This document shows, in pieces, positions 41,342-58,028 of a DNA stretch of 64,000 bases. The notes under the pieces are model-generated. The model was not told the origin of the DNA. It did not search any database and saw nothing but the letters and a program-made list of their open reading frames with translations. Source of the DNA: an uncultured Acidimicrobiia bacterium (GTDB lineage: Bacteria > Actinomycetota > Acidimicrobiia > Spongiisociales > DATADW01); assembly GCA_963826825.1 (NCBI GenBank), contig CAWGYV010000009.1, forward strand, positions 151,036 through 215,035. Reading direction: 5' to 3'. The stretch's first letter is position 1. Each line of letters starts with the position of its first letter. A program made the position numbers and the translations under genes.

Positions 41342-41634
41342 ATCTCACCGGGGCGCTGCCGGTACGCACCGACCGCCCAGACGTCGACGAGGTCGTGGTG
41401 GGCGACACCCCGTGGAACGTCGTCGTGTGGAACGATCCGGTGAACCTGATGGAGTACGTGGTCTATGTATTCCGCAAGCTCTTTGGCCACTCCGAGGAGG
41501 AGGCCACCCGGTTGATGCTCGCCGTCCATCACGAGGGGCGGGCGATCGTGGCATGCGGACCGAGGGAGAAGTCGGAGGTCGACTGCTACCGGCTGCACCA
41601 CTACGGGCTGTGGGCCACCCTGGAGAAGACGTGA
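41338..41634 (+). CDS. clpS: ATP-dependent Clp protease adaptor ClpS
   Basis: The GTG at 41338 begins a protein with [47 protein letters not shown]. Confidence 0.9.
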
Positions 41635-42087
41635 GGGAACCGTTCGCCGCCGATCGCAAGGGGCGGATCAAGGTCAAGCTCGACGTCAACGAGGTGGCGG
41701 TGCTCGGCCAGTTGGTGCCGCTGCTCGTCACCGAAGCGCCATCGCCCACCAACCCTCATGGCCGGCTGCCCGGTTTACCCGGGCTCTCCCGGGGACGACG
41801 ACGAGTTCTGGCGGCTGATGGGTGGCGAGCTGACCAGGGACAGGTTGGACGACCGGACCCGCTTCGAGGAGACCCTCGGTGCGGCCGACCGGGGAGTGGT
41901 GCTATCCAAGGACGAGGCAGAATCCTGGCTGCGCGTCCTGGGAGAGGCGCGGTTGGTCCTCGCCGCAAGGCTCGGGATCGACAAGGAGAGCGACTACGAG
42001 CGGGCTCGGGAGAACGGTGGCCCCGAGATGGCCACCCTCGACTACCTCGGCTACCTCCAGGCTTCGCTGGCCATGGCGCTCTCCTAG
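41631..42087 (+). CDS. DUF2017-family protein (usual ClpS neighbour in actinobacteria); +1 frameshift near 41770
   Basis: [33 protein letters not shown] is in one frame. [27 protein letters not shown]...[19 protein letters not shown] is in ORF 41758..42087. Confidence 0.7.
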
Positions 42088-43651: not shown

Positions 43652-44155
43652 ATGCAGGTAGGCCTCACCGTCAACGGGCGACCCGTCAAGGTGGACGTGG
43701 AGCCCAGGACGCTCCTCGTGCACCTCATCAGGGACAATCTCCACCTCACCGGCACCCATGTCGGTTGTGAGACTTCGTACTGCGGGGCCTGCACGGTTCT
43801 GGTGGACGGGACGACGATCAAGTCATGCACCATGCTGGCCGTGCAAGCCGAAGGCACCGAGGTGACGACCATCGAGGGACTGGCAAGCGACGGCAAGCTC
43901 CACCCGGTCCAGGAGGGGTTCTGGGAGCGTCACGGTCTGCAGTGCGGCTTCTGCACCCCCGGGATGATTCTGTCGGCTGTGGGGCTGCTGGCGGACAATC
44001 CGGACCCGTCCGAGGACGAGATCCGCCACGGGATCGACGGCAACCTCTGCCGCTGCACCGGCTACCACAACATCGTGCGCGCCATCGAGTACGCCGCGGC
44101 CACGATGCGCGGCGACACCCCGGCGCCTGCCGAGTGGGAAGAGGTGCCGGTATGA
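43652..44155 (+). CDS. coxS: (2Fe-2S)-binding small subunit of a xanthine-dehydrogenase/CODH-family Mo-hydroxylase
   Basis: Intact 167-aa ORF with [12 protein letters not shown] and CGFCTPGM...CRCTGY. Confidence 0.9.
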
Positions 44156-46508
44156 CCACCACCAGGCTCTTCGGCAAGGCGATCAAGCGCAAGGAGGATC
44201 CGGCGCTGATCGCGGGCACCGGCCGCTACGTGGAGGATGTGCGGCTCCCCGGCGAGTTGTCGGCGGCCTTCGTACGCAGCCCGTACGCCCGTGCAGTGGT
44301 CAACTCGATCGATGGCTCTGCTGCTCTCGAGATGCCGGGCGTACACGCCGTTTACACGATCGAAGACGTTCGCCATCTCGGTCCACTGCTGGCGCAGGTC
44401 CCGGTGGGAACCTTGAAGCCGCTCCTGGCGGACGGTCAGGTGCGCCATGTCGGCGAAGCGGTCGCCATGGTGGTGGCCGACGACAAGTACCTGGCCCGCG
44501 ACGCCGCCGATGCGGTCGAGGTCGACTACGACCCGATGGACGCAGCCGTGGACCTCGAGGATGCCGCCACCGACCGGATCCAGGTCCACGACGCGTCGAA
44601 CGTCGTCCACACCTGGGATGCGGGGGACGCCGACGGCTGTGCCGAGGCGTTCGGCAGGGACGACGTGGTGGTGGTGGAGCGCAAGTTGATCAACCAGCGG
44701 CTCATCCCGGTCGCGATCGAGCCCAGGGCGGTGCTTGCGGAGTGGAACGACGGCTACGGCAAGGTGAACGCTTGGTCCACCACTCAGATCCCCCATGCCG
44801 TGGCAGGCGCCATCGCCACCACGTTCGGTCTGGACGCCAACGACGTGCGGGTGATCGCACCCGAGGTCGGCGGTGGGTTCGGTTGCAAGCTCAACGTCTA
44901 TCCGGACGAGATCCTCTGCACATTCGCCAGCAAGATGCTGGGGAGCCCGGTGCGTTGGACTGAGACGAGGCGGGAGGCGGCTGTCGCCACCATCCAGGGG
45001 AGAGGCTGGGTGGCCACCGCCAAGATCGCGGCGACCAAGGACGGCGACATCCTCGCCTACGAGTTGGTCGGGCTGGCCGACATGGGCGCATACACGCAGA
45101 ACTTCACCATCGCCATCCCGGTGCTGGGACAGTTCACCGCCTCCGGCCAGTACGACATACCCAACGTCCACTTCAAGATCGACTGCGTGTACACCAACGA
45201 ACCTGTCACCGATGCCTACCGGGGAGCCGGGCGACCCGAGACCGCCTACTACCTGGAGCGTGCCGTCGACGCCCTGGCCGCTGAGCTCGATATGGACTCG
45301 GCAGAGTTGCGGAAGCGCAACTACGTCAAGCCCGAGGATTTCCCCTTCGAGACCAAGCTCGGAATGGTGATGGACTCCGGTCAATACGCCGCCACGCTCG
45401 GACCGTCTCCTGGAGATGGCCGATGTCGGCGGTCTCCGCGAGGAGCAGGCCAAGGCGAGAGAAGAGGGGCGCTGTCTCGGGATCGGGCTCACCACGTACG
45501 TGGAGAACTGCGGGCTGGCCCCTTCGGCCATGTTCGAGGGCGGGTTCTCCTGGGCGGGGTACGGACTGCCGTCGGCCTTCAACGAGTCGGCGGCGGTGCG
45601 GGCCAACCCCGACGGAAGCGTCACCGTGGTGACGGGCACGGGGCCAACCGGGCAGGGACACGAGACCACCTGGGCTCAGATCGCCAGCGATACGCTCGGG
45701 GTTCCATTCGACCGGGTAAAGGTCCGTCACGGCGACACCCACGACTCACCCATGGGCATCGGCACCTTCGGCAGCCGGTCTGCCGCCGTCGGGGGCCCGG
45801 CCGTTGCCCGGGCTGCAGGACGGGTTCAGGAGAAGGCCGCAAAGATCGCCGCCCACATGCTCGAGGCGGCCGCCGAGGACATCCGGTTCGAGGACGGCAA
45901 GGCCTTCGTGGCCGGGTCGCCGGACCAATCGGTGGACTGGGACGATCTGGTCGCCACCGCCTATCAGCAGTACCAATTGCCCGAGGGCGTGGAGGCCGGG
46001 CTGGAGGACATCGCCTTCTACGACCCGACCAACGGGACATGGCCGTACGGCGCCCACATGGCTGTGGTGGAGGTCGACACCGGAGACGGGCAACGTCGAG
46101 CTGCTGCGTTATCTGTCGGTGGACGACTGTGGGACTGTGATCAACCCGATGATCGTCGCCGGCCAGATCCATGGAGGGATCGTCCAAGGGATTGGTCAGG
46201 CGCTCTTCGAGGAGGCCGTCTACGACGAGAACGGGAGCCTGTTGACACCATCGTTGGCCGACTATCAGATCCCGACGGCGGCGGACATTCCGTCGTTCGA
46301 GATGGACCATACGGTGACGCCGACCGACGCCAACCCACTCGGCGTGAAGGGGGTCGGCGAGGCGGGGACCATCGGCTCGGCACAGACCATCGTGGCCGCC
46401 GTGCTCGACGCCCTCCGCCCGCTGGGGGTGACGACCATCGACATGCCGCTTCGACCAAGGAGGGTGTGGCAGGCGATCCAGGATGCACGGCAGGGAGGTG
46501 ATGGCTGA
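44152..46508 (+). CDS. coxL: molybdopterin-binding large subunit, form-II CoxL-like (AYRGAGR loop); +1 frameshifts near 45398 and 46083
   Basis: The ATGA overlaps the coxS stop. It reads [20 protein letters not shown]... and has the AYRGAGR loop at 45214-45234. It continues in ORF 45416..46501 and then in the frame of ORF 45804..46508 ([19 protein letters not shown]...[12 protein letters not shown]). Confidence 0.85.
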
Positions 46509-47369
46509 TGTACCCGAGGCCCTTCGAGTATGTCGCCCCGGCGACCATCGACGAGGCGCTAACCGTCCTCGCCGACAACCCGGGGGCGAAGGTGCTGTCA
46601 GGCGGGATGTCGCTGCTCCCTCTGATGAAGCTGCGTCTTCTCTCCCCAGAGTTGGTGGTTGACATCGGGCGGATCCCCGGCCTCGATCAGATCGAGGACA
46701 AGGGTGACCACATCTCCATCGGGGCGTTGGTCCGTCACAATCAGATCGCGTCGAGCGATCTCATTCGTGAGCACGCCGACGGCGTTGTCGCAGGCGGCGT
46801 CGTGGACCGGTGACGTCCAGGTGAGGAATCGAGGAACACTGTGTGGCTCGATGGCCCACGCCGATGTGGCAGCCGACCAGCCAGCCGCGGTGATCGCCCT
46901 CGGAGCCACCTTGGTGGCGCGGTCGTCGGGGGGTTCTCGCCAGATCGCAGCCGGCGACTTCGTCGTCGACGTCATGACCTCTGCATTGGAGCCAGACGAG
47001 ATCCTGGTGGAGATCAACGTGCCAAAGCGCGATGGTGGGTCCGCATACGACAAGATGGGGCGGCGAGGTGGCCACTCCGACTACGCGGTGGCCGGGGCTG
47101 CCGCATGGTTGCGGCGGGAGAACGGGAGCGTCGCAGAGGCATCGGTGGCGCTGACCGGTGTCGGTACCAAGCCGACATTGGCTCACGGCGTGATCGAGGC
47201 GATTCAGGGTGCGGATGCCAGCGAAGACGCCATCGCCGCCGCGGCGGAACGTGCCGCCGAGGGGGTGACGGTTCTCGAGGACCTGTACGGTTCGGTGGAG
47301 TACAAGACCCACCTGGCCAAGGTCTTCGCCCGCAGGGCGCTGAGTCAGGCGCTGGCGGCGGCGAGCTGA
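46508..47369 (+). CDS. coxM: FAD-binding medium subunit (CoxM-like); +1 frameshift near 46776
   Basis: [44 protein letters not shown], then the frame of ORF 46659..47369 (GDVQVRNRGTLCGSMAHAD...YKTHLAKVFARRAL). Confidence 0.85.
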
Positions 47370-47465: not shown

Positions 47466-47786
47466 TCAGGTCTCTTCGACCTCGAACCCCTGCTCGGCCC
47501 AGGCGACGATCCCGCCCTCGAGGTTGACCACGTTGTCCATTCCAGCCTGCTGGGCGAGCGCCTCGACCACACGTCCCGAGCGGGCGCCGGTCCGGCAGTA
47601 GACGACCACGGTGCGGTCGTCCGGTACCTCGGCCCACCAGGTGGCGAACTCGGTCATGGGATGGTGTACCGCACCGGCGATGCGGGCCTCGTCCCACTCG
47701 ATCTCCTCGCGCACGTCGATGAGCATGGCGCCGCCGCCGAGCAGGTCGGGCACATCGGCTGGGTCAACCGCTGGGATGTCGGGCAA
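47466..47786 (-). CDS. single-domain rhodanese (sulfurtransferase)
   Basis: Intact 106-aa ORF with the active-site loop YCRTGARS. A TTG start is preceded by AGGTGA. Confidence 0.85.
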   Translation of the reverse strand: MPDIPAVDPADVPDLLGGGAMLIDVREEIEWDEARIAGAVHHPMTEFATWWAEVPDDRTVVVYCRTGARSGRVVEALAQQAGMDNVVNLEGGIVAWAEQGFEVEET

Positions 47787-47793
47787 CGATCAC

Positions 47794-48201
47794 CTATGCG
47801 TCGGTGACCTCGATCGTACCGGTCATGTTGGAGTGGATCGAGCATACGTAGTCGTATGTGCCCGGGGTGTCGATCGTGACGGTGGCGCTCGATCCCGGGG
47901 CGATCTGGCCGGTGTCGAAAGCGCCGTCCGGCTGGGTCCATGTATGAGTCGCCTCGCCGTTGTTGACCACGGTGATCTCGGTACCGACGGCGACGCTGGC
48001 CGGCGCGCTGAACTCGAAGTCGATGATGCTCACCGATGCGGCGCCGCCTCCGCCGTCCCCGGCCGGTGCCGCGGTGGTTCCGGACCCGCCCCCGGCCGTG
48101 GTCTCGGACCCGCCCGCTGTGGTGGCGGTCCCGCCAGACCCGCTACATGCAACCAAAGCCAGCAGAGCCACCATCGCCAGCACGCCAAAGCTGCGTTTCA
48201 T
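47794..48201 (-). CDS. cupredoxin (type-1 blue copper) lipoprotein
   Basis: It has the lipobox LLALVAC, a Gly/Thr linker, and the ligand pattern H...C-S-I-H-S-N-M (C-x2-H-x2-M spacing, as in amicyanin-type sites). Confidence 0.75.
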   Translation of the reverse strand: MKRSFGVLAMVALLALVACSGSGGTATTAGGSETTAGGGSGTTAAPAGDGGGGAASVSIIDFEFSAPASVAVGTEITVVNNGEATHTWTQPDGAFDTGQIAPGSSATVTIDTPGTYDYVCSIHSNMTGTIEVTDA

Positions 48202-48285: not shown

Positions 48286-49176
48286 ATGGCCAATCCGCTC
48301 CCCGCCGACGTAGATGCCGTACAGCAAGCTCTCGACGGGAGCGAGTACATCGCCGATCGCAGCCTGGCGATCGCCATCCACCTCGGTCTTCAGTTGGGCA
48401 GGCCACTTTTCCTCGAGGGCGAGGCCGGCGTTGGAAAGACAGAAGTGGCCAAGGTGCTGGCCGGGTTCCTCGATGCCCCGCTCATAAGGCTGCAGTGCTA
48501 CGAGGGTCTCGACGCCGGACACGCCCTCTACGAATGGGACTACGCCAGGCAGATGCTCGCCATACGGCTGCTCGAGGCGCGCGGCGAGGGCCAAGCCGCC
48601 GACGTCAAGGACATCATGAGCCGCGACTACCTGGTGGCGCGCCCGCTGCTCAAGGCGGTCGAACTGGCGGCCCTGGGGGAGCGGCCCGTGCTGCTCATCG
48701 ACGAGATAGACCGGGCCGACGAGGAGTTCGAGGCCTATCTGCTCGAACTGCTCTCCGACTTCCAAGTCACCATCCCCGAGGTGGGGACCATCGCCGCCGA
48801 GGATCCGCCCGTGGTCATCCTCACCTCCAACCGCACACGTGAGATACACGACGCACTGAAGCGGCGGTGCATCTACTACTGGATCGACTACCCCACCTTC
48901 GAGCGCGAGGTCGCCATCGTCGGACGCAAGGTCCCAGGCATCAGCGATGTCCTCGCCTCAGAGTTGGCGAGAGTGATGGAGCGGTTGCGCGAGATGGATC
49001 TGTTCAAGCCTCCCGGAGTGGCGGAGACGCTCGACTGGGCGCAAGCACTCAACGTGCTCGACGCCACCCGGCTCACCCCTGAGGTGATCGAGCAGACCAT
49101 CGGTGTGGCGCTCAAGTACCGCGAGGACATCGAACGGGTGCGCTCCACCGGGTTGGAGTCGCTCCTCGCCGGGTGA
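48286..49176 (+). CDS. MoxR-family AAA+ ATPase (CoxD-like)
   Basis: The ATG at 48286 gives MANPLPADVDAVQQAL... with Walker A GEAGVGKT, Walker B LLIDEIDRA and TSNR. Confidence 0.9.
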   Translation: MANPLPADVDAVQQALDGSEYIADRSLAIAIHLGLQLGRPLFLEGEAGVGKTEVAKVLAGFLDAPLIRLQCYEGLDAGHALYEWDYARQMLAIRLLEARGEGQAADVKDIMSRDYLVARPLLKAVELAALGERPVLLIDEIDRADEEFEAYLLELLSDFQVTIPEVGTIAAEDPPVVILTSNRTREIHDALKRRCIYYWIDYPTFEREVAIVGRKVPGISDVLASELARVMERLREMDLFKPPGVAETLDWAQALNVLDATRLTPEVIEQTIGVALKYREDIERVRSTGLESLLAG

Positions 49177-49223
49177 GCCAGAACTCACCGATTGGATTAT
49201 GTTCCCCCTCATAGAGGGGTCCA

Positions 49224-50330
49224 ATGATCGACGCTGAAACGCTCGACCGGCTCGCCGAGGCGGAGGCGCCGGTGCTCTCCGTCTATCTGTCCCGACCGAT
49301 GCAGGTCAACCCGTCCGCTCGGCTCACCGATCTGCTCCGCCCGATCCGCGAGGCTGCGGCCGAGGGCGAGCACCGTGAGGAGAAGGCGATCCGGCAAGCG
49401 GTCCGGTCGGTGCTGGACCTGAGTTGGCGGTTGGAGACGGAGCCGGCGCCGGGTGTGGCCATATTCGCCACCAATGGAGAGGTGAGCTACGAGGCACTTC
49501 CCGGCGAGGTCTGGGATGTGGCCATGCTGGCCGACACCCCATACCTCCGACCGATCCGCGCCCTGCCCGAGCCGACCGTGACCCTGGTCGCCACCACCGA
49601 CAGACGCAGGGCAGACATCTTCGTCAAGAGGGACGGAGAGATGGAACCGGCCGGGGTGGTCGAGGAGGAGACTGGGCACAAAGCCAACTACGGCGGATGG
49701 AAGGGACTTGCCGAGCACGGGGCGCGCAAGGCCGCAGAGGAGATGGCACGGAGGCACTTCGATCGAGTCGCCGAGCGGTTCTTCGAGATGCACAAGGGCG
49801 ATCCGGTGACCTGGGTGGCCATAGGTGGCCACCAGGGACAGGTCGAGGAGCTTGCCGGGCACCTCCACCCCTACCTCCGGGAGCGGATGCTCGGAACCTT
49901 CGTGATCGACCCGGCGACGGCGACCGCCCATATCGTGAAGGAAGCCGTGACGACTCTCGAAGAGGCGGCACGGGACCGAAATTCCAGGGCGGTGGCCGAG
50001 CAGCTGGCTGCCGGCTCTGAATCCGGGCAGACCGTGGCCTGGGGTATCGACCAGGTCCTCGCAGCCGCCAACCTGGCTGCAATCGATCTCCTCGCCATCG
50101 CAGGTACCCAGCCCGAGCCCGGTGTTGTGTGCCCGGCGTGCCGGTGGATCGGTCGAGGCACCAAGAGATGCCCGGTTTGCGGCACAGAGACCCGCCATCA
50201 CCCCGACATCGCCGCCGAAGCGATCGAGCGGGTCATCGGATCGGGCGGACGACTCGTCTATCTCCCCGATGGCTCACCGGTCGATGGGGCGGCTGCATCG
50301 CTCCGTTTCCCGCTGCCAGTGGTCGACTGA
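49224..50330 (+). CDS. eRF1/Pelota-superfamily (bacterial aeRF1-like) protein with GGW in place of GGQ and a CxxC...CxxC insert
   Basis: Intact 368-aa ORF. It has an N-terminal APVLSVYLSRP and a central TLVATTDRRRADIFV...GHKANYGGWKGLAEHGARKAAEEMARRHFDRVAERF (GGW at 49692-49700). The C-terminal domain has TVAWGIDQVLAAANLAAIDLLAI, CPACRWIGRGTKRCPVCG (50130-50183) and the ending GAAASLRFPLP. Order and spacing mimic the eRF1/Pelota M and C domains. Confidence 0.65.
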   Translation: MIDAETLDRLAEAEAPVLSVYLSRPMQVNPSARLTDLLRPIREAAAEGEHREEKAIRQAVRSVLDLSWRLETEPAPGVAIFATNGEVSYEALPGEVWDVAMLADTPYLRPIRALPEPTVTLVATTDRRRADIFVKRDGEMEPAGVVEEETGHKANYGGWKGLAEHGARKAAEEMARRHFDRVAERFFEMHKGDPVTWVAIGGHQGQVEELAGHLHPYLRERMLGTFVIDPATATAHIVKEAVTTLEEAARDRNSRAVAEQLAAGSESGQTVAWGIDQVLAAANLAAIDLLAIAGTQPEPGVVCPACRWIGRGTKRCPVCGTETRHHPDIAAEAIERVIGSGGRLVYLPDGSPVDGAAASLRFPLPVVD

Positions 50331-50345
50331 GCCAGGCTGGCGACA

Positions 50346-51482
50346 GTGACCGCCTTCGCCGACAACCTGGTGCTCTTCGTCCGCCACCTCCGTGGGCTCG
50401 GATTCCGGCTCCCTCCGCAGTCGGCGGGGGAGTTGTCGAGAGCCGCGGTCGCCGTTGGGTTGGAACGACGGGAGGACGTGTATCACGCCTTCCGATCGAT
50501 CATCGTGATCCGCCCCTCCGAGGTCCCCCTTTTCGATGAGGCATTCGACCTCTTCTTTGGCAGGGGGACGTCGGTGACACCGGCACCCGTGATTTCGACC
50601 ACGCAGGCAGCTTCGGTGACGACCGGGCTTTCGGTGGTTTCCTCGGGTGCCGTGGGTCCCGAGGCAGAGGATGTTGCCGATCGAAGCGGGGCGTCTGCAG
50701 CCGAGCGGCTTGGGCGGCGTGACTTCGGCGAGATGTCGGCCGCCGAGAGCGAAGAGGTCCGCCGTCTCATCGCCAGGATGGTGTGGAGACCGGCCGATGC
50801 CAGGAGCCGGCGTTTCGCTCCGGCGCGGAACGGTTCCCAACCGGACCTTCGTCGAACACTGCGCCGGGCCGTGGGCACGGAAGGGGAGTTGCTCAGGCTC
50901 GCCATGTCGGAGCGCCGCCGCCGGCGGCGGCCGCTGATCATCATCGCCGACGTGAGCGGCTCGATGGAGCGGTACGTCGAGATGCTGCTCTACTTCGCCC
51001 ATGCCGCCCGCGACCGTCTGGGCCATCTCGAAGCATTTGTCTTCTCGACCCGTCTCACCCGGATAACGCGCCAGCTTCGACGGCGCGACCCGGCGCGGGC
51101 CATCGCCGAGGTCGCCGGGCACGTCATCGACTGGTCGGGTGGAACCCGGATTGGAGAGGCGCTCCACACCTTCAACATCGAATGGAGCCGGCGGGTGGGG
51201 CGGGGCGGGCCGGTGGCGCTGATCGTGTCCGACGGTTGGGATCGGGGCGACCCCGAATTGCTCCGCGAAGAGATGGCACGTTTCGCTCGCAGCGTCCATC
51301 GGGTGGTTTGGCTCAACCCGCTGGCGGGACGCGAGGGCTACGCCCCCGAGACGAGGGGGATGCGAACGGTGCTTCCCTATATCGATGACCTCCTCCCTGC
51401 CGCAAACCTCACCCACCTCGTGGATGTGATCCGGCTCCTAGAGTCACTGCCGGCGCGTCGACGGGAGGTAGCGAGAGCATGA
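50346..51482 (+). CDS. VWA-domain protein, CoxE type
   Basis: Intact 378-aa ORF with the MIDAS-containing segment [13 protein letters not shown], plus WSGGTRIG and [11 protein letters not shown]. Confidence 0.85.
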
Positions 51483-51787
51483 AGGACGCCCTCGAGATCT
51501 ACGACCGCTGGATGGCGGATGGAAAAGACGTGGCGGTTGCGACGGTTGTGCGCGTCTCGGGGTCGGCGCCCAGACCTGAGGGTGCCAAGTTTCTCGTCTC
51601 GTCGGAAGGCGACATGGAGGGGTCGGTGAGCGGAGGGTGTGTCGAGAACGATGTGTTTCTCCACGCCCAAGAGGTGCTGGCAGGCGCCGAGCCGCGACTC
51701 GTCACATATGGCATCGCCGACGACGAGGCATTCGAGGTGGGGCTGGCTTGCGGGGGGACGATTCAGGTCTACGTCGAGCGATGGTGA
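51479..51787 (+). CDS. XdhC/CoxI N-terminal-domain protein
   Basis: 102-aa ORF with [36 protein letters not shown]. The start overlaps the VWA gene stop. Confidence 0.75.
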
Positions 51788-52566
51788 GCCCCCACCTCGA
51801 GGCGATCCGCCGGCTGCACAAGGAAGAGAGGCTTGGCGCCGCGGTCACCGTGCTCACCGGGCCCGATGAGGGGTCCCACGCGGTTCTCGATGCCGAGCAG
51901 GGCGTGATCGAGGGGAAGCTCCCACCCGGTCTCGAGGAACACATCCTCGACGATGCGCGCCAACTCATGGACCAGGAACAGAGCCGGACGCTCGAATACG
52001 ACGAAACATCGGTGTTCATCGAGACCCTGGCACCGCAACCGCGGTTGGTGATATTCGGAGCGGTGCACATCGCCCAGCCGCTCGCCGTCTTCGCCAACGA
52101 GCTCGGCTTCCGCGTCACCGTCTCCGATTCGCGCCCGGCCTTCACCACCACCGAGCGATTCCCCGACGCTGAGGTGGCGGTCGGGAGACCCGAGGATGTC
52201 CTAACCGATCTCGACCTCGACCGCCGTACCTACGTAGTGGTCCTGAGCCACGACGCCCGTTTTGAGGACCCTGTGTTCCCGGCCGTGTTGCAGAGCCCGG
52301 TGCGCTACATCGGCGCCATGGGGAGTCGGCGCACGCACGCGGCGCGCCGCCAGCGCCTCTTGGCCGGAGGTTTCGACACCGATGCGATCGACCGGATCCA
52401 CGGCCCCATCGGGCTCGACATCGGAGCAGAGGCCCCGGCCGAGGTTGCGATCTCCATCCTCGCCGAGATGATCCAGGTGCGTTACGGGGCGGGCAGCGGC
52501 CGTTCTCTCCGCGGGCGTGAGGGGCGGATCCATCGCCAAAGAACCGACGACGAGGGCGACATCTGA
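51781..52566 (+). CDS. XdhC-family maturation factor (second N-like domain plus Rossmann-like C-domain)
   Basis: ATGGTGA overlaps the previous ORF. It contains [34 protein letters not shown] and [14 protein letters not shown]. Confidence 0.8.
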
Positions 52567-52591
52567 TCCGTTTCCAAACCGCCGGTTCGAG

Positions 52592-53227
52592 ATGACGGTC
52601 GCAGCCCTGGTCCTTGCTGGCGGCGGTTCTCGTCGGCTGGGTCGACCCAAGCAATTACTCCCTTGGGGAGGCGTGACACTGCTCGATCATGTCCTCGACC
52701 AGGTGCGGCGCTGGGGGATAGACGAGATCTGGGTCGTGCTGGGCGCTCATGCCGAGGAGGTGCGCGACCAGGTTGACCTCACCGGGGTGGGTGTCGTCGA
52801 GAACCCGGAGTGGGAGGAGGGGCTTGCCTCCTCGCTGCGGGCGGGTCTGGATGCGATCGGCCGGTTGTCAAAGATGGACGGTGCGCTGATCGTCATGGGA
52901 GATCAGCCCGACGTGAGCAACGATGTGGTGGCGGAATTGGTCGCCGCCTACCGACCGGGGAAAACGGCCGCCGTGGTCCCCAAGTACCGGTATACCCAGG
53001 GCAACCCTGTCCTCGTCGACCGGTTGCTCTGGCCGCGGTTGATGAGTCTCGAAGGGGACGAGGGTGCCCGCCGGTTGCTGGAAGCGCATCCCGACTGGGT
53101 AACCGAGGTCTGGTTGGAGCACCTCCCGCCGAGAGATGTCGACACCAGTTTCGACGTCGAGGAACTTCAGCCACGCCACGTTCGGCACGAGGTGGACGAG
53201 GGGCGCTCGCCAAGGAGTGGCGTCTAG
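52592..53227 (+). CDS. MobA-like NTP transferase (molybdenum cofactor cytidylyltransferase, MocA-like)
   Basis: The ATG at 52592 gives MTVAALVLAGGGSRRLGRPKQLLPWGG.TLL...GDQPDV. Confidence 0.8.
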   Translation: MTVAALVLAGGGSRRLGRPKQLLPWGGVTLLDHVLDQVRRWGIDEIWVVLGAHAEEVRDQVDLTGVGVVENPEWEEGLASSLRAGLDAIGRLSKMDGALIVMGDQPDVSNDVVAELVAAYRPGKTAAVVPKYRYTQGNPVLVDRLLWPRLMSLEGDEGARRLLEAHPDWVTEVWLEHLPPRDVDTSFDVEELQPRHVRHEVDEGRSPRSGV

Positions 53228-53262: not shown

Positions 53263-53670
53263 GTGATGGCTTCGATTGCCGCCATAGTGAGCATCGGCGC
53301 CAAGGACGCCGCCAAGCTCCGGAGAAGCGGAGTGCGCACCACTGAGGCGCTGTTGAGGCGAGGCGCCACCCGGCGCGGCCGCGCCGAGCTAGCCACCCAA
53401 TCGAATTGTGCAGAGGCCCAGATCCTTGCGTGGGTGAACCGCGCCGACCTCATGAGGGTACGAGGCGTCGGTCCGGAGTACGCCGACCTGCTCGAAGCTT
53501 CCGGGGTGGACACCATCAAGGAGCTCGCCCGACGTAAGCCGGCCGCTCTCGCCGCCAAGGTGTCCCAGATCAACGAGCAGAAGAAGCTGGTGCGGCGGCT
53601 CCCCACCGAGGCGATGGTCGAGCGCTGGGTCGAGCACAGCGGTCAACTCGACGGCAGAGTCACCTACTGA
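53263..53670 (+). CDS. DUF4332-domain protein
   Basis: Intact 135-aa ORF with an HhH-like LMRVRGVGPEYADLLEASGVDTIKELA. Confidence 0.6.
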   Translation: MMASIAAIVSIGAKDAAKLRRSGVRTTEALLRRGATRRGRAELATQSNCAEAQILAWVNRADLMRVRGVGPEYADLLEASGVDTIKELARRKPAALAAKVSQINEQKKLVRRLPTEAMVERWVEHSGQLDGRVTY

Positions 53671-53798: not shown

Positions 53799-54308
53799 TC
53801 AGGCTGCGGTCGACGTGCCCTTGGTCGTGGACTTGGTCGATGCTGGCTTGCGGGCGGCAGGCTTGCGGGTGGTGGTGCCGGAAGCTGCCTTGGCTGCCTT
53901 CTCCACCGAGTCGAGCGCTTCGCTGGTCGCCTTCTTGACCGTGCTCTCCGCCTTCTCGGCACCCTCGTCAATCTCGACCTTCACCGCCTGGGCGGCTTCG
54001 ACCGGCTTCTCGGGGTTGAAGTTCTGACGCCAGGTGGCAACGAGGTCCTCCAACTGGCCGCGCAGCTTGCCGACCTGTTCGGAGATGTTGTCCACGTCCA
54101 CCCGGGAGGTGAAGTCCTCGACCAGTTTCTGGTCGGCGATCCGGCCGACGACCTTCTCACCTTCTGTTGCCCAGGTTCCGTACTCCTTGCGGAAATCACC
54201 GGCGAACTTGGTGCTCAGTTCGGTGAGGGTGTCGGTCAGCTTGCGGGTGGCCACCACGGGCGCACCCACGGCGGCGTAGAACGCCGTCTTGGTCCCATCC
54301 AGTTTCAT
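53799..54308 (-). CDS. HbhA-like (heparin-binding-hemagglutinin-like) coiled-coil protein with a Lys/Ala/Thr-rich tail
   Basis: Intact 169-aa ORF with FYAAVGAPVVATRKL and the tail TTRKPAARKPASTKSTTKGTSTAA. It is coupled to an upstream XRE gene, as in the mycobacterial Rv0474-hbhA arrangement. Confidence 0.65.
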   Translation of the reverse strand: MKLDGTKTAFYAAVGAPVVATRKLTDTLTELSTKFAGDFRKEYGTWATEGEKVVGRIADQKLVEDFTSRVDVDNISEQVGKLRGQLEDLVATWRQNFNPEKPVEAAQAVKVEIDEGAEKAESTVKKATSEALDSVEKAAKAASGTTTRKPAARKPASTKSTTKGTSTAA

Positions 54309-57014: not shown

Positions 57015-58028
57015 ATGATCATCGTCATGCGGTCGGCGGCGACCGACGAGGACATCGCCGCCGTCTGCGAACGGCTTCGCCGGATCGGGTGCGAGGCACA
57101 CGTCTCCAATGGCCGCGACCGGACGGTGATAGGGGCGGTCGGCGATCGCGATCGGATCCAGCAGTTGCCTTGGGAGGCGATGTCGGGGGTGGAGCGGGCG
57201 ATCCCGGTGCTCAAACCGTTCAAGCTGGTGAGCCGCGAGTTCCAGCAGAGCGATACGGTGGTGAAGGTTGGCGAGGCGCGCATCGGCGGGGGTTCTTTCG
57301 CACCTATCGCCGGTCCGTGTGCCGCCGAGACGAGGGACCAGGTCCTGCGCACCGCAGAGGCGGTGAAGAAGGCCGGCGCCACCGTGCTCCGTGGCGACGC
57401 CTTCAAGCCCCGCACCTCGCCCTACTCGTTCCAGGGGCTTGGTGAGGAGGGACTGGAACTTCTCGCCGAGGCGCGCGAGGCATTCGAGATCCCGTTCGTC
57501 GCCGAGGTTGTCGACCCGAGACATGTCGGGCTCGTGGCGTCATACGCCGACATGATCCGGGTGGGAACCCGGAACATGGCCAACTTCAGCCTGCTGGCCG
57601 AGGTTGGGACGGCGGGAAAGCCGGTGCAGCTCAAGCGTGGGCTGACTGCAACCGTCGAGGAGTGGCTCAACGCCGCCGAGTACATCTTCATGTCGGGCAA
57701 TCACGAGATCGTGCTGGTCGAACGGGGGATCAGGACATTCGAGACAGCGGCGCGCAACACGCTCGACATCACCGCCATCCCGGTGGTGAAGGAGCTATCG
57801 CACCTCCCGATTCTGATCGACCCCTCACACGCCGCAGGGAGGCGGGAACTGGTGGCCCCGCTGGCGCGGGCTGCCGTCGCCGTGGGCGCAGACGGGTTCA
57901 TGGTGGACGTCCACCCCGCTCCGGAGTCGGCTTTGGTCGATGGCGCACAGGCCTTGCTTCCCTACGAGTTTGCCGCGTTGATGGACCAGGTTCGGGCCTT
58001 GGCCGACGCTCTCGGCATCACCGTCTGA
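57015..58028 (+). CDS. aroF: 3-deoxy-7-phosphoheptulonate (DAHP) synthase, type I-beta, with an N-terminal regulatory domain
   Basis: Intact 337-aa ORF with IAGPCAAE, LRGDAFKPRTSPYSFQGLG, IRVGTRNM and LIDPSHAAG. Confidence 0.9.
   Translation: MIIVMRSAATDEDIAAVCERLRRIGCEAHVSNGRDRTVIGAVGDRDRIQQLPWEAMSGVERAIPVLKPFKLVSREFQQSDTVVKVGEARIGGGSFAPIAGPCAAETRDQVLRTAEAVKKAGATVLRGDAFKPRTSPYSFQGLGEEGLELLAEAREAFEIPFVAEVVDPRHVGLVASYADMIRVGTRNMANFSLLAEVGTAGKPVQLKRGLTATVEEWLNAAEYIFMSGNHEIVLVERGIRTFETAARNTLDITAIPVVKELSHLPILIDPSHAAGRRELVAPLARAAVAVGADGFMVDVHPAPESALVDGAQALLPYEFAALMDQVRALADALGITV

Follow-up and report, generated by a model that had tools for sequence, protein, structure and literature searches.

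Results

A release-factor-like gene between MoxR and VWA genes

We analysed a 64,000-nucleotide stretch of DNA from an uncultured Acidimicrobiia bacterium (assembly GCA_963826825.1, contig CAWGYV010000009.1, positions 151,036 to 215,035), hereafter the window, in which a gene for a protein with the fold of archaeo-eukaryotic release factor 1 (aeRF1) lies between the genes of a MoxR-class AAA+ ATPase and a VWA protein, downstream of a carbon monoxide dehydrogenase (CODH)-like gene cluster (cox). The gene, here called baeRF or baeRF10 after its Pfam family, is an uninterrupted ATG open reading frame (ORF) for 368 amino acids on the forward strand (49224..50330), and all peptide strings quoted from it in the original prediction are present in the ORF list. 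The gaps given there also agree with the sequence: the MoxR ORF ends at 49176, leaving 47 nt, and the VWA gene begins with GTG at 50346, leaving 15 nt. A Shine-Dalgarno-like GAGGGG (49214..49219, forward strand) lies 4 nt 5' of the ATG, and a purine-rich GGAGG-like stretch precedes the corresponding ATG in seven relatives (L001, L002, L004, L042, L047, L096, L126). The ORF is a real gene under purifying selection, since its ratio of nonsynonymous to synonymous substitution rates (dN/dS) is 0.15–0.18 against three relatives whose proteins are 93%, 93% and 84% identical.

Because the same-strand genes are tightly spaced, MoxR, baeRF and VWA are likely co-transcribed; a promoter and terminator scan gave no signal between the three genes, with none above shuffled expectation. 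An inverted repeat at 49205–49219, CCCCTC-ATA-GAGGGG, would sequester the Shine-Dalgarno sequence of the baeRF gene. As a candidate regulatory hairpin it was dropped, with a fold z of −1.8 and the left arm lost in the 84% and 69% identical relatives.

The protein has an aeRF1 fold closest to bacterial hibernation factors

The original prediction read the translation as an aeRF1/Pelota-type protein, and the checks that it named, Pfam profiles and a Foldseek comparison of the predicted structure, gave significant aeRF1-fold matches. Residues 106–242 matched Pfam baeRF_family10 (PF18854) at 41.4 bits, above the gathering score of 27.1, with weaker matches to baeRF families 2 and 3, and NCBIfam returned a weak match to aRF1/eRF1. 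Three NCBIfam equivalog models of ribosome hibernation factors were also used (NF052287, NF052288, NF052289). The model named 'Rv2629 family ribosome hibernation factor' matched over its full length at 59.7 bits, below its cutoff of 320, the AOC03_06830-family model scored 20.7 bits, below its cutoff of 330, and the MSMEG_1130-family model gave no match at E ≤ 0.01.

A search of the PDB with the single window sequence returned nothing meaningful. With a profile of 63 family members, Msmeg1130 (Balon; 1.4e-26) and Rv2629 (2.7e-16) were both matched end to end, and the same profile matched Halobacterium aRF1 (1.7e-19) and, at lower rank, Pelota and eRF1. From the 63-sequence alignment AlphaFold2 gave a model with a mean pLDDT of 93 and a pTM of 0.86, with low confidence confined to residues 150–170, the GGW loop discussed below. 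It shows the three-domain layout of the aeRF1 superfamily, approximately an N domain (residues 1–112), an RNase-H-like middle domain (117–265) and a Pelota-type C domain (268–368).

In a Foldseek search of the PDB with this model, all 45 matches at E ≤ 1e-3 belonged to the aeRF1 superfamily. Ranks 1, 2 and 4–7 were ribosome-bound Msmeg1130, Psychrobacter urativorans Balon and Rv2629 (TM score 0.70–0.78; 8v9l_z and 8v9j_z 0.75–0.78, 8rd8, 8rdv and 8rdw 0.72–0.75, 8v9k 0.70–0.71), and the likeness to these Balon homologues extends over all three domains. aRF1 and eRF1 gave TM scores of 0.27–0.56, followed by Pelota/Dom34. The aeRF1 fold of the window protein is thereby established, and its closest solved relatives are bacterial hibernation factors described in 2024. 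The original prediction knew of no experimental function for such a protein embedded in a MoxR-VWA pair or a Mo-hydroxylase maturation set; for bacterial aeRF1 homologues as such this is outdated, Balon, Rv2629 and Msmeg1130 having been shown to act as A-site hibernation factors (PMC10901736). The wider family numbers 1,323 representatives at E ≤ 1e-3, or 551 at the stricter E ≤ 1e-10, and almost all homologues share the Pfam label baeRF_family10. A search of a plasmid collection found one homologue only, a distant one.

An aromatic loop and a retained zinc ribbon characterise the subfamily

At the tip of the middle-domain loop, the position of GGQ in eRF1, the window protein reads GGW (G157-G158-W159; 49692..49700, forward strand), at the coordinates originally predicted. 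In the 63-sequence alignment the loop follows the motif K-x-N-Y-G-G-[F/W]-x-G-[Y/L]-x-E, and the residue after GG is Phe in 33 sequences, Trp in 20 and Gln in none; on these counts the idea of a recent Gln-to-Trp change was rejected. The GWNGY of Rv2629 aligns with the GGW loop in the family profile. The protein thus lacks both signatures of a classical release factor, its loop reading GGW and no NIKS string being present, and with a GGWKG loop and no match to PF18859 it does not belong with Vms1/VLRF-1.

A Gln is also absent from the other candidate position, that of GGxSQ: apart from the most distant cluster, none of the 63 sequences has Gln at either the GG-x or the GGxS-Q position. The most distant relatives (P0082, P0085, P0086) read GGWSQ, which is the GGxSQ motif known from VLRF-1-like families, and an ungapped alignment puts their Gln at Gly161 of the window protein; GGxSQ occurs in 17 of the 121 full-length representatives. 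Judged from these alignments, the published account of family 10 as having a conserved Gln (PMC6514570) does not hold for the GG[F/W] subfamily.

The second feature is a four-Cys zinc ribbon (CPAC...CPVCG, C303 to G320; 50130..50183, forward strand) aligned within the C-terminal Pelota-type domain, again at the predicted coordinates. C303 and C316 are present in all 63 sequences and C306 and C319 in at least 90% of them, and all four Cys are retained in 85 of 121 full-length representatives (50% clustering). The original prediction treated this knuckle as an insert. Classical aeRF-1 proteins, however, carry an inserted zinc ribbon at that site of their Pelota domain, of which most baeRF-1 families have a degenerate version (PMC6514570), and the family profile aligns the window's ribbon with the insert of Halobacterium aRF1 (4af1), which also bears Cys residues. 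This makes the knuckle a retained ancestral feature; a local insertion is ruled out by the family-wide conservation of the Cys residues together with the aRF1 alignment. Both the GGW loop and the zinc ribbon are subfamily-wide, and hence not special to the window locus.

The neighbouring genes encode a molybdenum hydroxylase and a probable maturation set

Upstream of baeRF, the MoxR-class ATPase (48286..49176, forward strand; Pfam AAA_5, AAA and AAA_3) is CoxD-like, with intact Walker A (GEAGVGKT) and Walker B (VLLIDE) motifs; orthologues 68–78% identical to it are located in cox clusters, and it scores 276 bits against NCBIfam MadB_ATPase, below the cutoff of 475. Downstream lies the CoxE-like VWA protein (50346..51482, forward strand; VWA_CoxE PF05762, 1.1e-57), whose metal ion-dependent adhesion site (MIDAS) motif DVSGS is intact at residues 202–206. 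Further genes on the same strand encode an XdhC/CoxF-like chaperone for insertion of the molybdenum cofactor (Moco) (51479..52566; XdhC_CoxI and XdhC_C on two ORFs), a MobA/MocA-like nucleoside triphosphate transferase of the Moco cytidylyltransferase type (52517..53227; PF12804, 1e-41) and a DUF4332 protein (53263..53670), identified from the Pfam labels of its orthologues and tblastn matches across loci. MocA and DUF4332 are the most constant neighbours of baeRF10 in Acidimicrobiia.

The ORF list places coxS (43652–44155), coxL (44152–46508) and coxM (46508–47369), all on the forward strand, before the MoxR gene. The order S-L-M and the AYRGAGR motif of coxL mark the enzyme as a form-II CODH-like molybdenum hydroxylase. 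With a Walker-intact MoxR, a VWA_CoxE protein with its MIDAS motif and XdhC beside coxSLM, the locus carries a maturation set of the CoxD/CoxE/CoxF type; we note that a form-II enzyme is here accompanied by the full set. CoxL is spread over three frames, with breaks near 45400–45434 and 46080–46087, and XdhC over two, with a break near 51781–51799 where a tblastn search with the intact XdhC of L001 switches frame. Relatives have single ORFs for both genes, and assembly indel errors seem likelier than pseudogenes. The nearest relatives are metagenome-assembled genomes (MAGs) of one sequencing series (names MFD...), among them L047 (P0005), which has a scrambled baeRF gene.

On the reverse strand, divergent from the MoxR operon, Pfam identifies a rhodanese (47466–47786), found at the same position in relatives, and a cupredoxin (47794–48201). 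The two could conceivably supply sulfur and copper to a CuSMoO2-type site, although form II enzymes are not known to contain one. Chromosomal backbone genes flank the region: ClpS and DUF2017 (41377..42084, forward strand, by tblastn; ClpS 41377–41631) on one side and DAHP synthase (57015–58016) on the other. A 169-amino-acid Lys/Ala/Thr-rich ORF (53799–54308, reverse strand) lies between the DUF4332 gene and a helix-turn-helix (HTH) regulator gene, a slot that is filled in L001, L002 and L004 by genes without Pfam matches.

The interleaved gene order is probably old but facultative

To survey gene order we combined individual homologue look-ups with a motif-pattern scan in which each GTDB species was represented by a single genome; together these gave at least 104 loci with a homologue, mostly from Acidimicrobiia, and 14 chance loci without one. 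The pattern scan finds only members with K-x-N-[YF]-G-G-[FW]-x-G, and loci were obtained as uncentred 8-kb blocks, so that the following fractions are approximate and hold at least among the matches listed. Taxonomic labels of MAGs were used as given, and the tree is a rough neighbour-joining (NJ) tree.

Three states could be distinguished: (a) baeRF-MocA-DUF4332; (b) baeRF-XdhC-MocA-DUF4332, in many cases preceded by Peptidase_M15_4 and a divergently transcribed rhodanese; and (c), the window type, coxSLM ... rhodanese-MoxR-(Peptidase_M15_4)-baeRF-VWA-XdhC-MocA-DUF4332. The gene downstream of baeRF10 was VWA in 16 of 75 readable loci, XdhC in 30, MocA in 22 and another gene in 7, while MoxR was present upstream in 18 and absent in 47 of 65 readable loci. 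MoxR and VWA come together: they co-occurred in 12 of 12 loci that have them and are readable on both sides, and in 0 of 21 otherwise. CoxM or CoxS was present in all ten state-(c) loci with sufficient upstream sequence, and the interleaved MoxR-baeRF-VWA order was found in about 20 Acidimicrobiia species. About half of the state-(c) relatives have Peptidase_M15_4 between MoxR and baeRF10, and in state-(b) relatives it is the gene immediately before baeRF10 (L001 3853–5010; also L011, L024, L048, L073, L086, L092, L111, L116, L118 and L137); tblastn found no match to it in the window. In L024 (2280–3377) the best VWA match is opposite in strand to baeRF10, XdhC and MoxR, which could reflect a local inversion or an assembly problem.

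The window and its Acidimicrobiia relatives have a common backbone, ClpS-DUF2017 ... baeRF-[VWA]-[XdhC]-MocA-DUF4332-HTH-acyltransferase-epimerase-DAHP synthase, which is shared even by relatives without cox, MoxR and VWA (e.g. L002 and L004). In this class baeRF10 is a chromosomal backbone gene. ClpS-DUF2017 lies 4.4–6.3 kb upstream of baeRF10 in L002 (1–8137) and L004 (1873–8104), about 7 kb upstream in the window with cox between, and directly upstream in Kribbella (L133, 5089–7155), which belongs to another class; this proximity hints at an old actinobacterial anchor position of baeRF10. State (c) occupies several deep branches of the NJ tree, with (b) and (a) nested inside. The interleaved order thus seems to be of long standing in the main Acidimicrobiia clade, where repeated losses of MoxR, VWA and cox would have left baeRF10 in place.

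We also surveyed from the side of MoxR, scanning metagenome contigs with a profile of state-(c) MoxR proteins and examining the 80 closest orthologues (57–77% identity). VWA_CoxE was directly adjacent to MoxR in 53 of 60 informative loci, most often with XdhC after it and coxS/coxM before MoxR, in agreement with the original statement that MoxR and VWA genes normally sit side by side. Peptidase_M15_4-baeRF stood between them in one of the 60 loci, and one further short contig begins likewise; the remaining six had a neighbour other than VWA or baeRF. Because these 53 loci are without baeRF and most baeRF loci are without MoxR and VWA, neither partner depends on the other: the CoxD/CoxE pair works without baeRF nearly everywhere, and baeRF persists without the pair.

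The dedicated MoxR-aeRF1-VWA system of the original prediction is thus mostly unsupported, given that about a quarter of baeRF10 loci have MoxR or VWA, that about 2% of MoxR-orthologue loci have baeRF10, and that Peptidase_M15_4 also occupies the slot. The linkage is not one of mutual dependence, though it recurs in Acidimicrobiia and in Pseudonocardia. The original prediction had named a lack of recurrent linkage as grounds for a chance insertion; such a lack is not fully borne out, given the Acidimicrobiia species with the interleaved order and the differently ordered Pseudonocardia block described next. PADLOC gave no defence-system match for the MoxR-baeRF-VWA trio, and a literature search returned no paper linking coxD/coxE with a release-factor-like gene.

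A probable second association in Pseudonocardia and other contexts

Pseudonocardia sp. H11422 and P. acidicola carry a PDZ-baeRF10-MoxR-VWA_CoxE-DsbA/Rv2466c-like block (L009 6565–11267 and L215 5591–10262; VWA_CoxE of 478–482 amino acids). Their two baeRF10 proteins are 69% identical to each other and about 30% identical to the window protein, and no cox genes lie within 6–7 kb on either side of the block, in a housekeeping region (Obg, ProB). The MoxR protein is 44% identical to the window MoxR, below ordinary CoxD orthologues, and the gene order is unlike that of Acidimicrobiia. Against NCBIfam MadB and MadC the Pseudonocardia MoxR and VWA proteins score 301 and 174 bits, above the window's scores and below cutoff. 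The block looks like a second, separate association. No association with MoxR or VWA was found in P. aurantiaca, whose protein is 56% identical to that of H11422, in Kribbella or in an uncultured relative.

Other neighbours vary. In Thermocatellispora, baeRF10 adjoins genes for CBS-domain and universal-stress (USP) proteins, a setting reminiscent of the Hrp1/USP surroundings of Rv2629. DUF308/HdeD lies near baeRF10 in a soil metagenome relative, DJ-1/PfpI in P. aurantiaca, and a sigma factor, DnaJ/CbpM, redoxin, DsbA, USP and DegQ on an Azospirillum megaplasmid. These stress-related surroundings match those that Balon genes are reported to have (PMC10901736), whereas the window has cox and Moco genes instead. 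P. aurantiaca also has a second, shorter baeRF10-like protein fused to zf-UBP, encoded beside GreA and G6PD (L132 1686–2702), and the 503-amino-acid P0163 has the same pair of domains.

Discussion

Our comparisons point to the ORF between the MoxR and VWA genes encoding an aeRF1-fold protein of the baeRF-1 clade (Pfam family 10) that is most likely of the Balon/Rv2629/Msmeg1130 kind, an assignment from sequence and model in which we place modest confidence. Such a protein would be a non-catalytic factor that binds a vacant or stalled ribosomal A site, occupying that of the 70S ribosome under starvation or stress. Its N domain would face the decoding centre and its C domain, in which the zinc ribbon is intact, the factor-binding site, possibly together with EF-Tu; the loop of the middle domain (GG[F/W]xG, lacking the catalytic Gln) would sit next to the peptidyl-transferase centre. 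The aromatic loop residue may pack on rRNA near the peptidyl-transferase centre, much as the lasso loop of Balon wraps A2602, so that translation would be blocked and the ribosome protected with no release of peptide. Balon-type factors have neither NIKS nor GGQ; they need no mRNA for binding to the A site, keep the peptidyl-transferase centre inert and recruit EF-Tu (PMC10901736).

MoxR, VWA, XdhC and MocA would mature the adjacent form-II CODH-like enzyme, by analogy with CoxD, CoxE and CoxF (PMC3471820, PMC4240915). The interleaved order would then give at most co-transcription of the two functions, which is plausible if both are induced by starvation. Carbon starvation induces aerobic CODH in actinobacteria; if this applies here, one transcript could serve two persistence functions. 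The interleaved order itself is a lineage-specific old arrangement, and the chance that it reflects real coupling is small.

The window protein shares with Balon, Rv2629 and Msmeg1130 the three-domain aeRF1 fold, the best full-length structural match and the lack of NIKS and GGQ, and with Rv2629 also the G-W-x-G-Y loop. Unlike that group it keeps a four-Cys zinc ribbon, the aligned Msmeg1130 and Rv2629 having no Cys at the profile's four positions; its subfamily has a strictly conserved aromatic residue after GG, and the window has no RaiA/HPF neighbour. From PF18854 as described (PMC6514570) the subfamily differs in having no Gln, GGxSQ being found in distant relatives only. With aRF1/eRF1 and Pelota/Dom34 the protein shares the domain order and, at the insertion point of aRF1, the zinc ribbon, but it has neither NIKS nor GGQ, and its overall conformation is nearer to ribosome-bound Balon. 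Bacterial hosts of the baeRF-1 clade would still rely on RF1/RF2 (PMC6514570). The protein is an uncharacterised member of a known, recently characterised kind.

Several points weigh against a Balon-like function. The relation to the proven hibernation factors is remote, at 14–22% identity, and the protein stays far below all three NCBIfam equivalog cutoffs. Burroughs and Aravind described family 10 as keeping a well-conserved Gln and singled the family out as possibly catalytic (PMC6514570). The flank fractions behind our account of the locus come from pattern-biased 8-kb sampling, the interleaved order is seemingly ancestral and long-lived with tight same-strand spacing, and the cox-free Pseudonocardia block is hard to ascribe to chance alone.

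These last observations bear on the likeliest alternative, in which baeRF10 is a working partner (client, adaptor or regulator) of the MoxR-VWA machine: the AAA+/MIDAS pair would load the factor onto ribosomes or strip it from them, or baeRF10 would target the MoxR-VWA chaperone to a nascent or ribosome-bound substrate. We regard this as unlikely. In its favour, the tight same-strand order is kept in about 20 species-level genomes of Acidimicrobiia with baeRF proteins only 30–43% identical to that of the window, it appears basal in the NJ tree, the Pseudonocardia block looks independent, and by our own rough estimate chance adjacency to one of the few MoxR-VWA_CoxE pairs per genome is rare. 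However, 72–79% of the loci listed are without MoxR and VWA while baeRF10 is still at the same chromosomal place, the great majority of closest-MoxR loci (53 of 60) lack baeRF10, and neither MoxR nor VWA lies near the gene in P. aurantiaca (56%), Kribbella (46%) or four other clusters. An unrelated peptidase gene occupies the same inter-gene slot, and the trio corresponds to no system model, from PADLOC or otherwise.

A more specific version, which we rate somewhat lower still, makes the A-site factor a client or adaptor of the CoxD/CoxE-type MoxR-VWA machine as a bacterial counterpart of Rea1/Midasin, an AAA_5 ring with a MIDAS domain that would put a protein on ribosomes or pull it off, with ATP-driven exit from hibernation genetically coupled to a starvation-induced molybdenum enzyme. 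Rea1/Midasin removes factors from pre-60S particles. The long-lived Acidimicrobiia order and the independent, cox-free Pseudonocardia block speak for the client or adaptor idea.

The parallel with Vms1/ANKZF1 and Cdc48 (VLRF-1) is limited to an aeRF1-superfamily gene beside that of an AAA+ ATPase: the window protein has no PF18859, GGxSQ/GxGGQ or VIM, its MoxR is of the AAA_5 type and unrelated to Cdc48, and the linkage is facultative. A precedent for the neighbourhood is Oligotropha carboxidovorans, where CoxD, CoxE and CoxF mature the active site of CODH (PMC3471820, PMC4240915) and with which the window shares MoxR, VWA_CoxE and XdhC-type genes following coxSLM on one strand; the closest MoxR orthologues, too, are in cox clusters of the usual order D-E-F. 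Unlike there, the window enzyme is of form II with the order S-L-M, and one or two unrelated genes (Peptidase_M15_4, baeRF10) stand between D and E in this lineage.

It is improbable that the protein is an active peptidyl-tRNA hydrolase or ribosome-rescue factor releasing stalled chains, as Burroughs and Aravind proposed. Membership of a Pfam family described with a conserved Gln (PMC6514570) would argue for such an activity, as would the distant GGWSQ relatives found in the same search and the retention of all three domains with an arginine-rich helix after the loop. Gln, however, stands at neither candidate position (GG[F/W] replaces GGQ, and Gly161 the Gln of GGxSQ), Rv2629, which is non-catalytic by experiment, has a G-W-x-G-Y loop too, and the model is closer to Balon than to eRF1.

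Least probable of all is that the fold was repurposed off the ribosome for maturation of Moco or a molybdenum enzyme: VWA_CoxE, XdhC or MocA is indeed the next gene in 68 of 75 readable loci, and MocA and DUF4332 follow baeRF10 even in a deep clade without other cox genes, but synteny across the class extends over all 15 kb of the region, so that adjacency is little informative, Moco genes lie near baeRF10 in 0 of the 12 distinct contexts examined outside Acidimicrobiia, and the protein keeps features typical of ribosome-binding aeRF1 proteins.

If the window protein is indeed a Balon-like A-site factor, it would add a branch with a zinc ribbon and an aromatic loop to the Balon/baeRF-1 family, in the Acidimicrobiia, which are abundant in soil and sea with few cultured members, and the published view of Pfam family 10 as generally catalytic would be corrected. 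Should baeRF10 instead prove a client of MoxR and VWA, this would be the first case in bacteria of ribosome remodelling akin to that by Midasin and a new class of MoxR-VWA client. For a Balon-like factor, co-transcription with the CODH-like enzyme would link two persistence functions in these bacteria.

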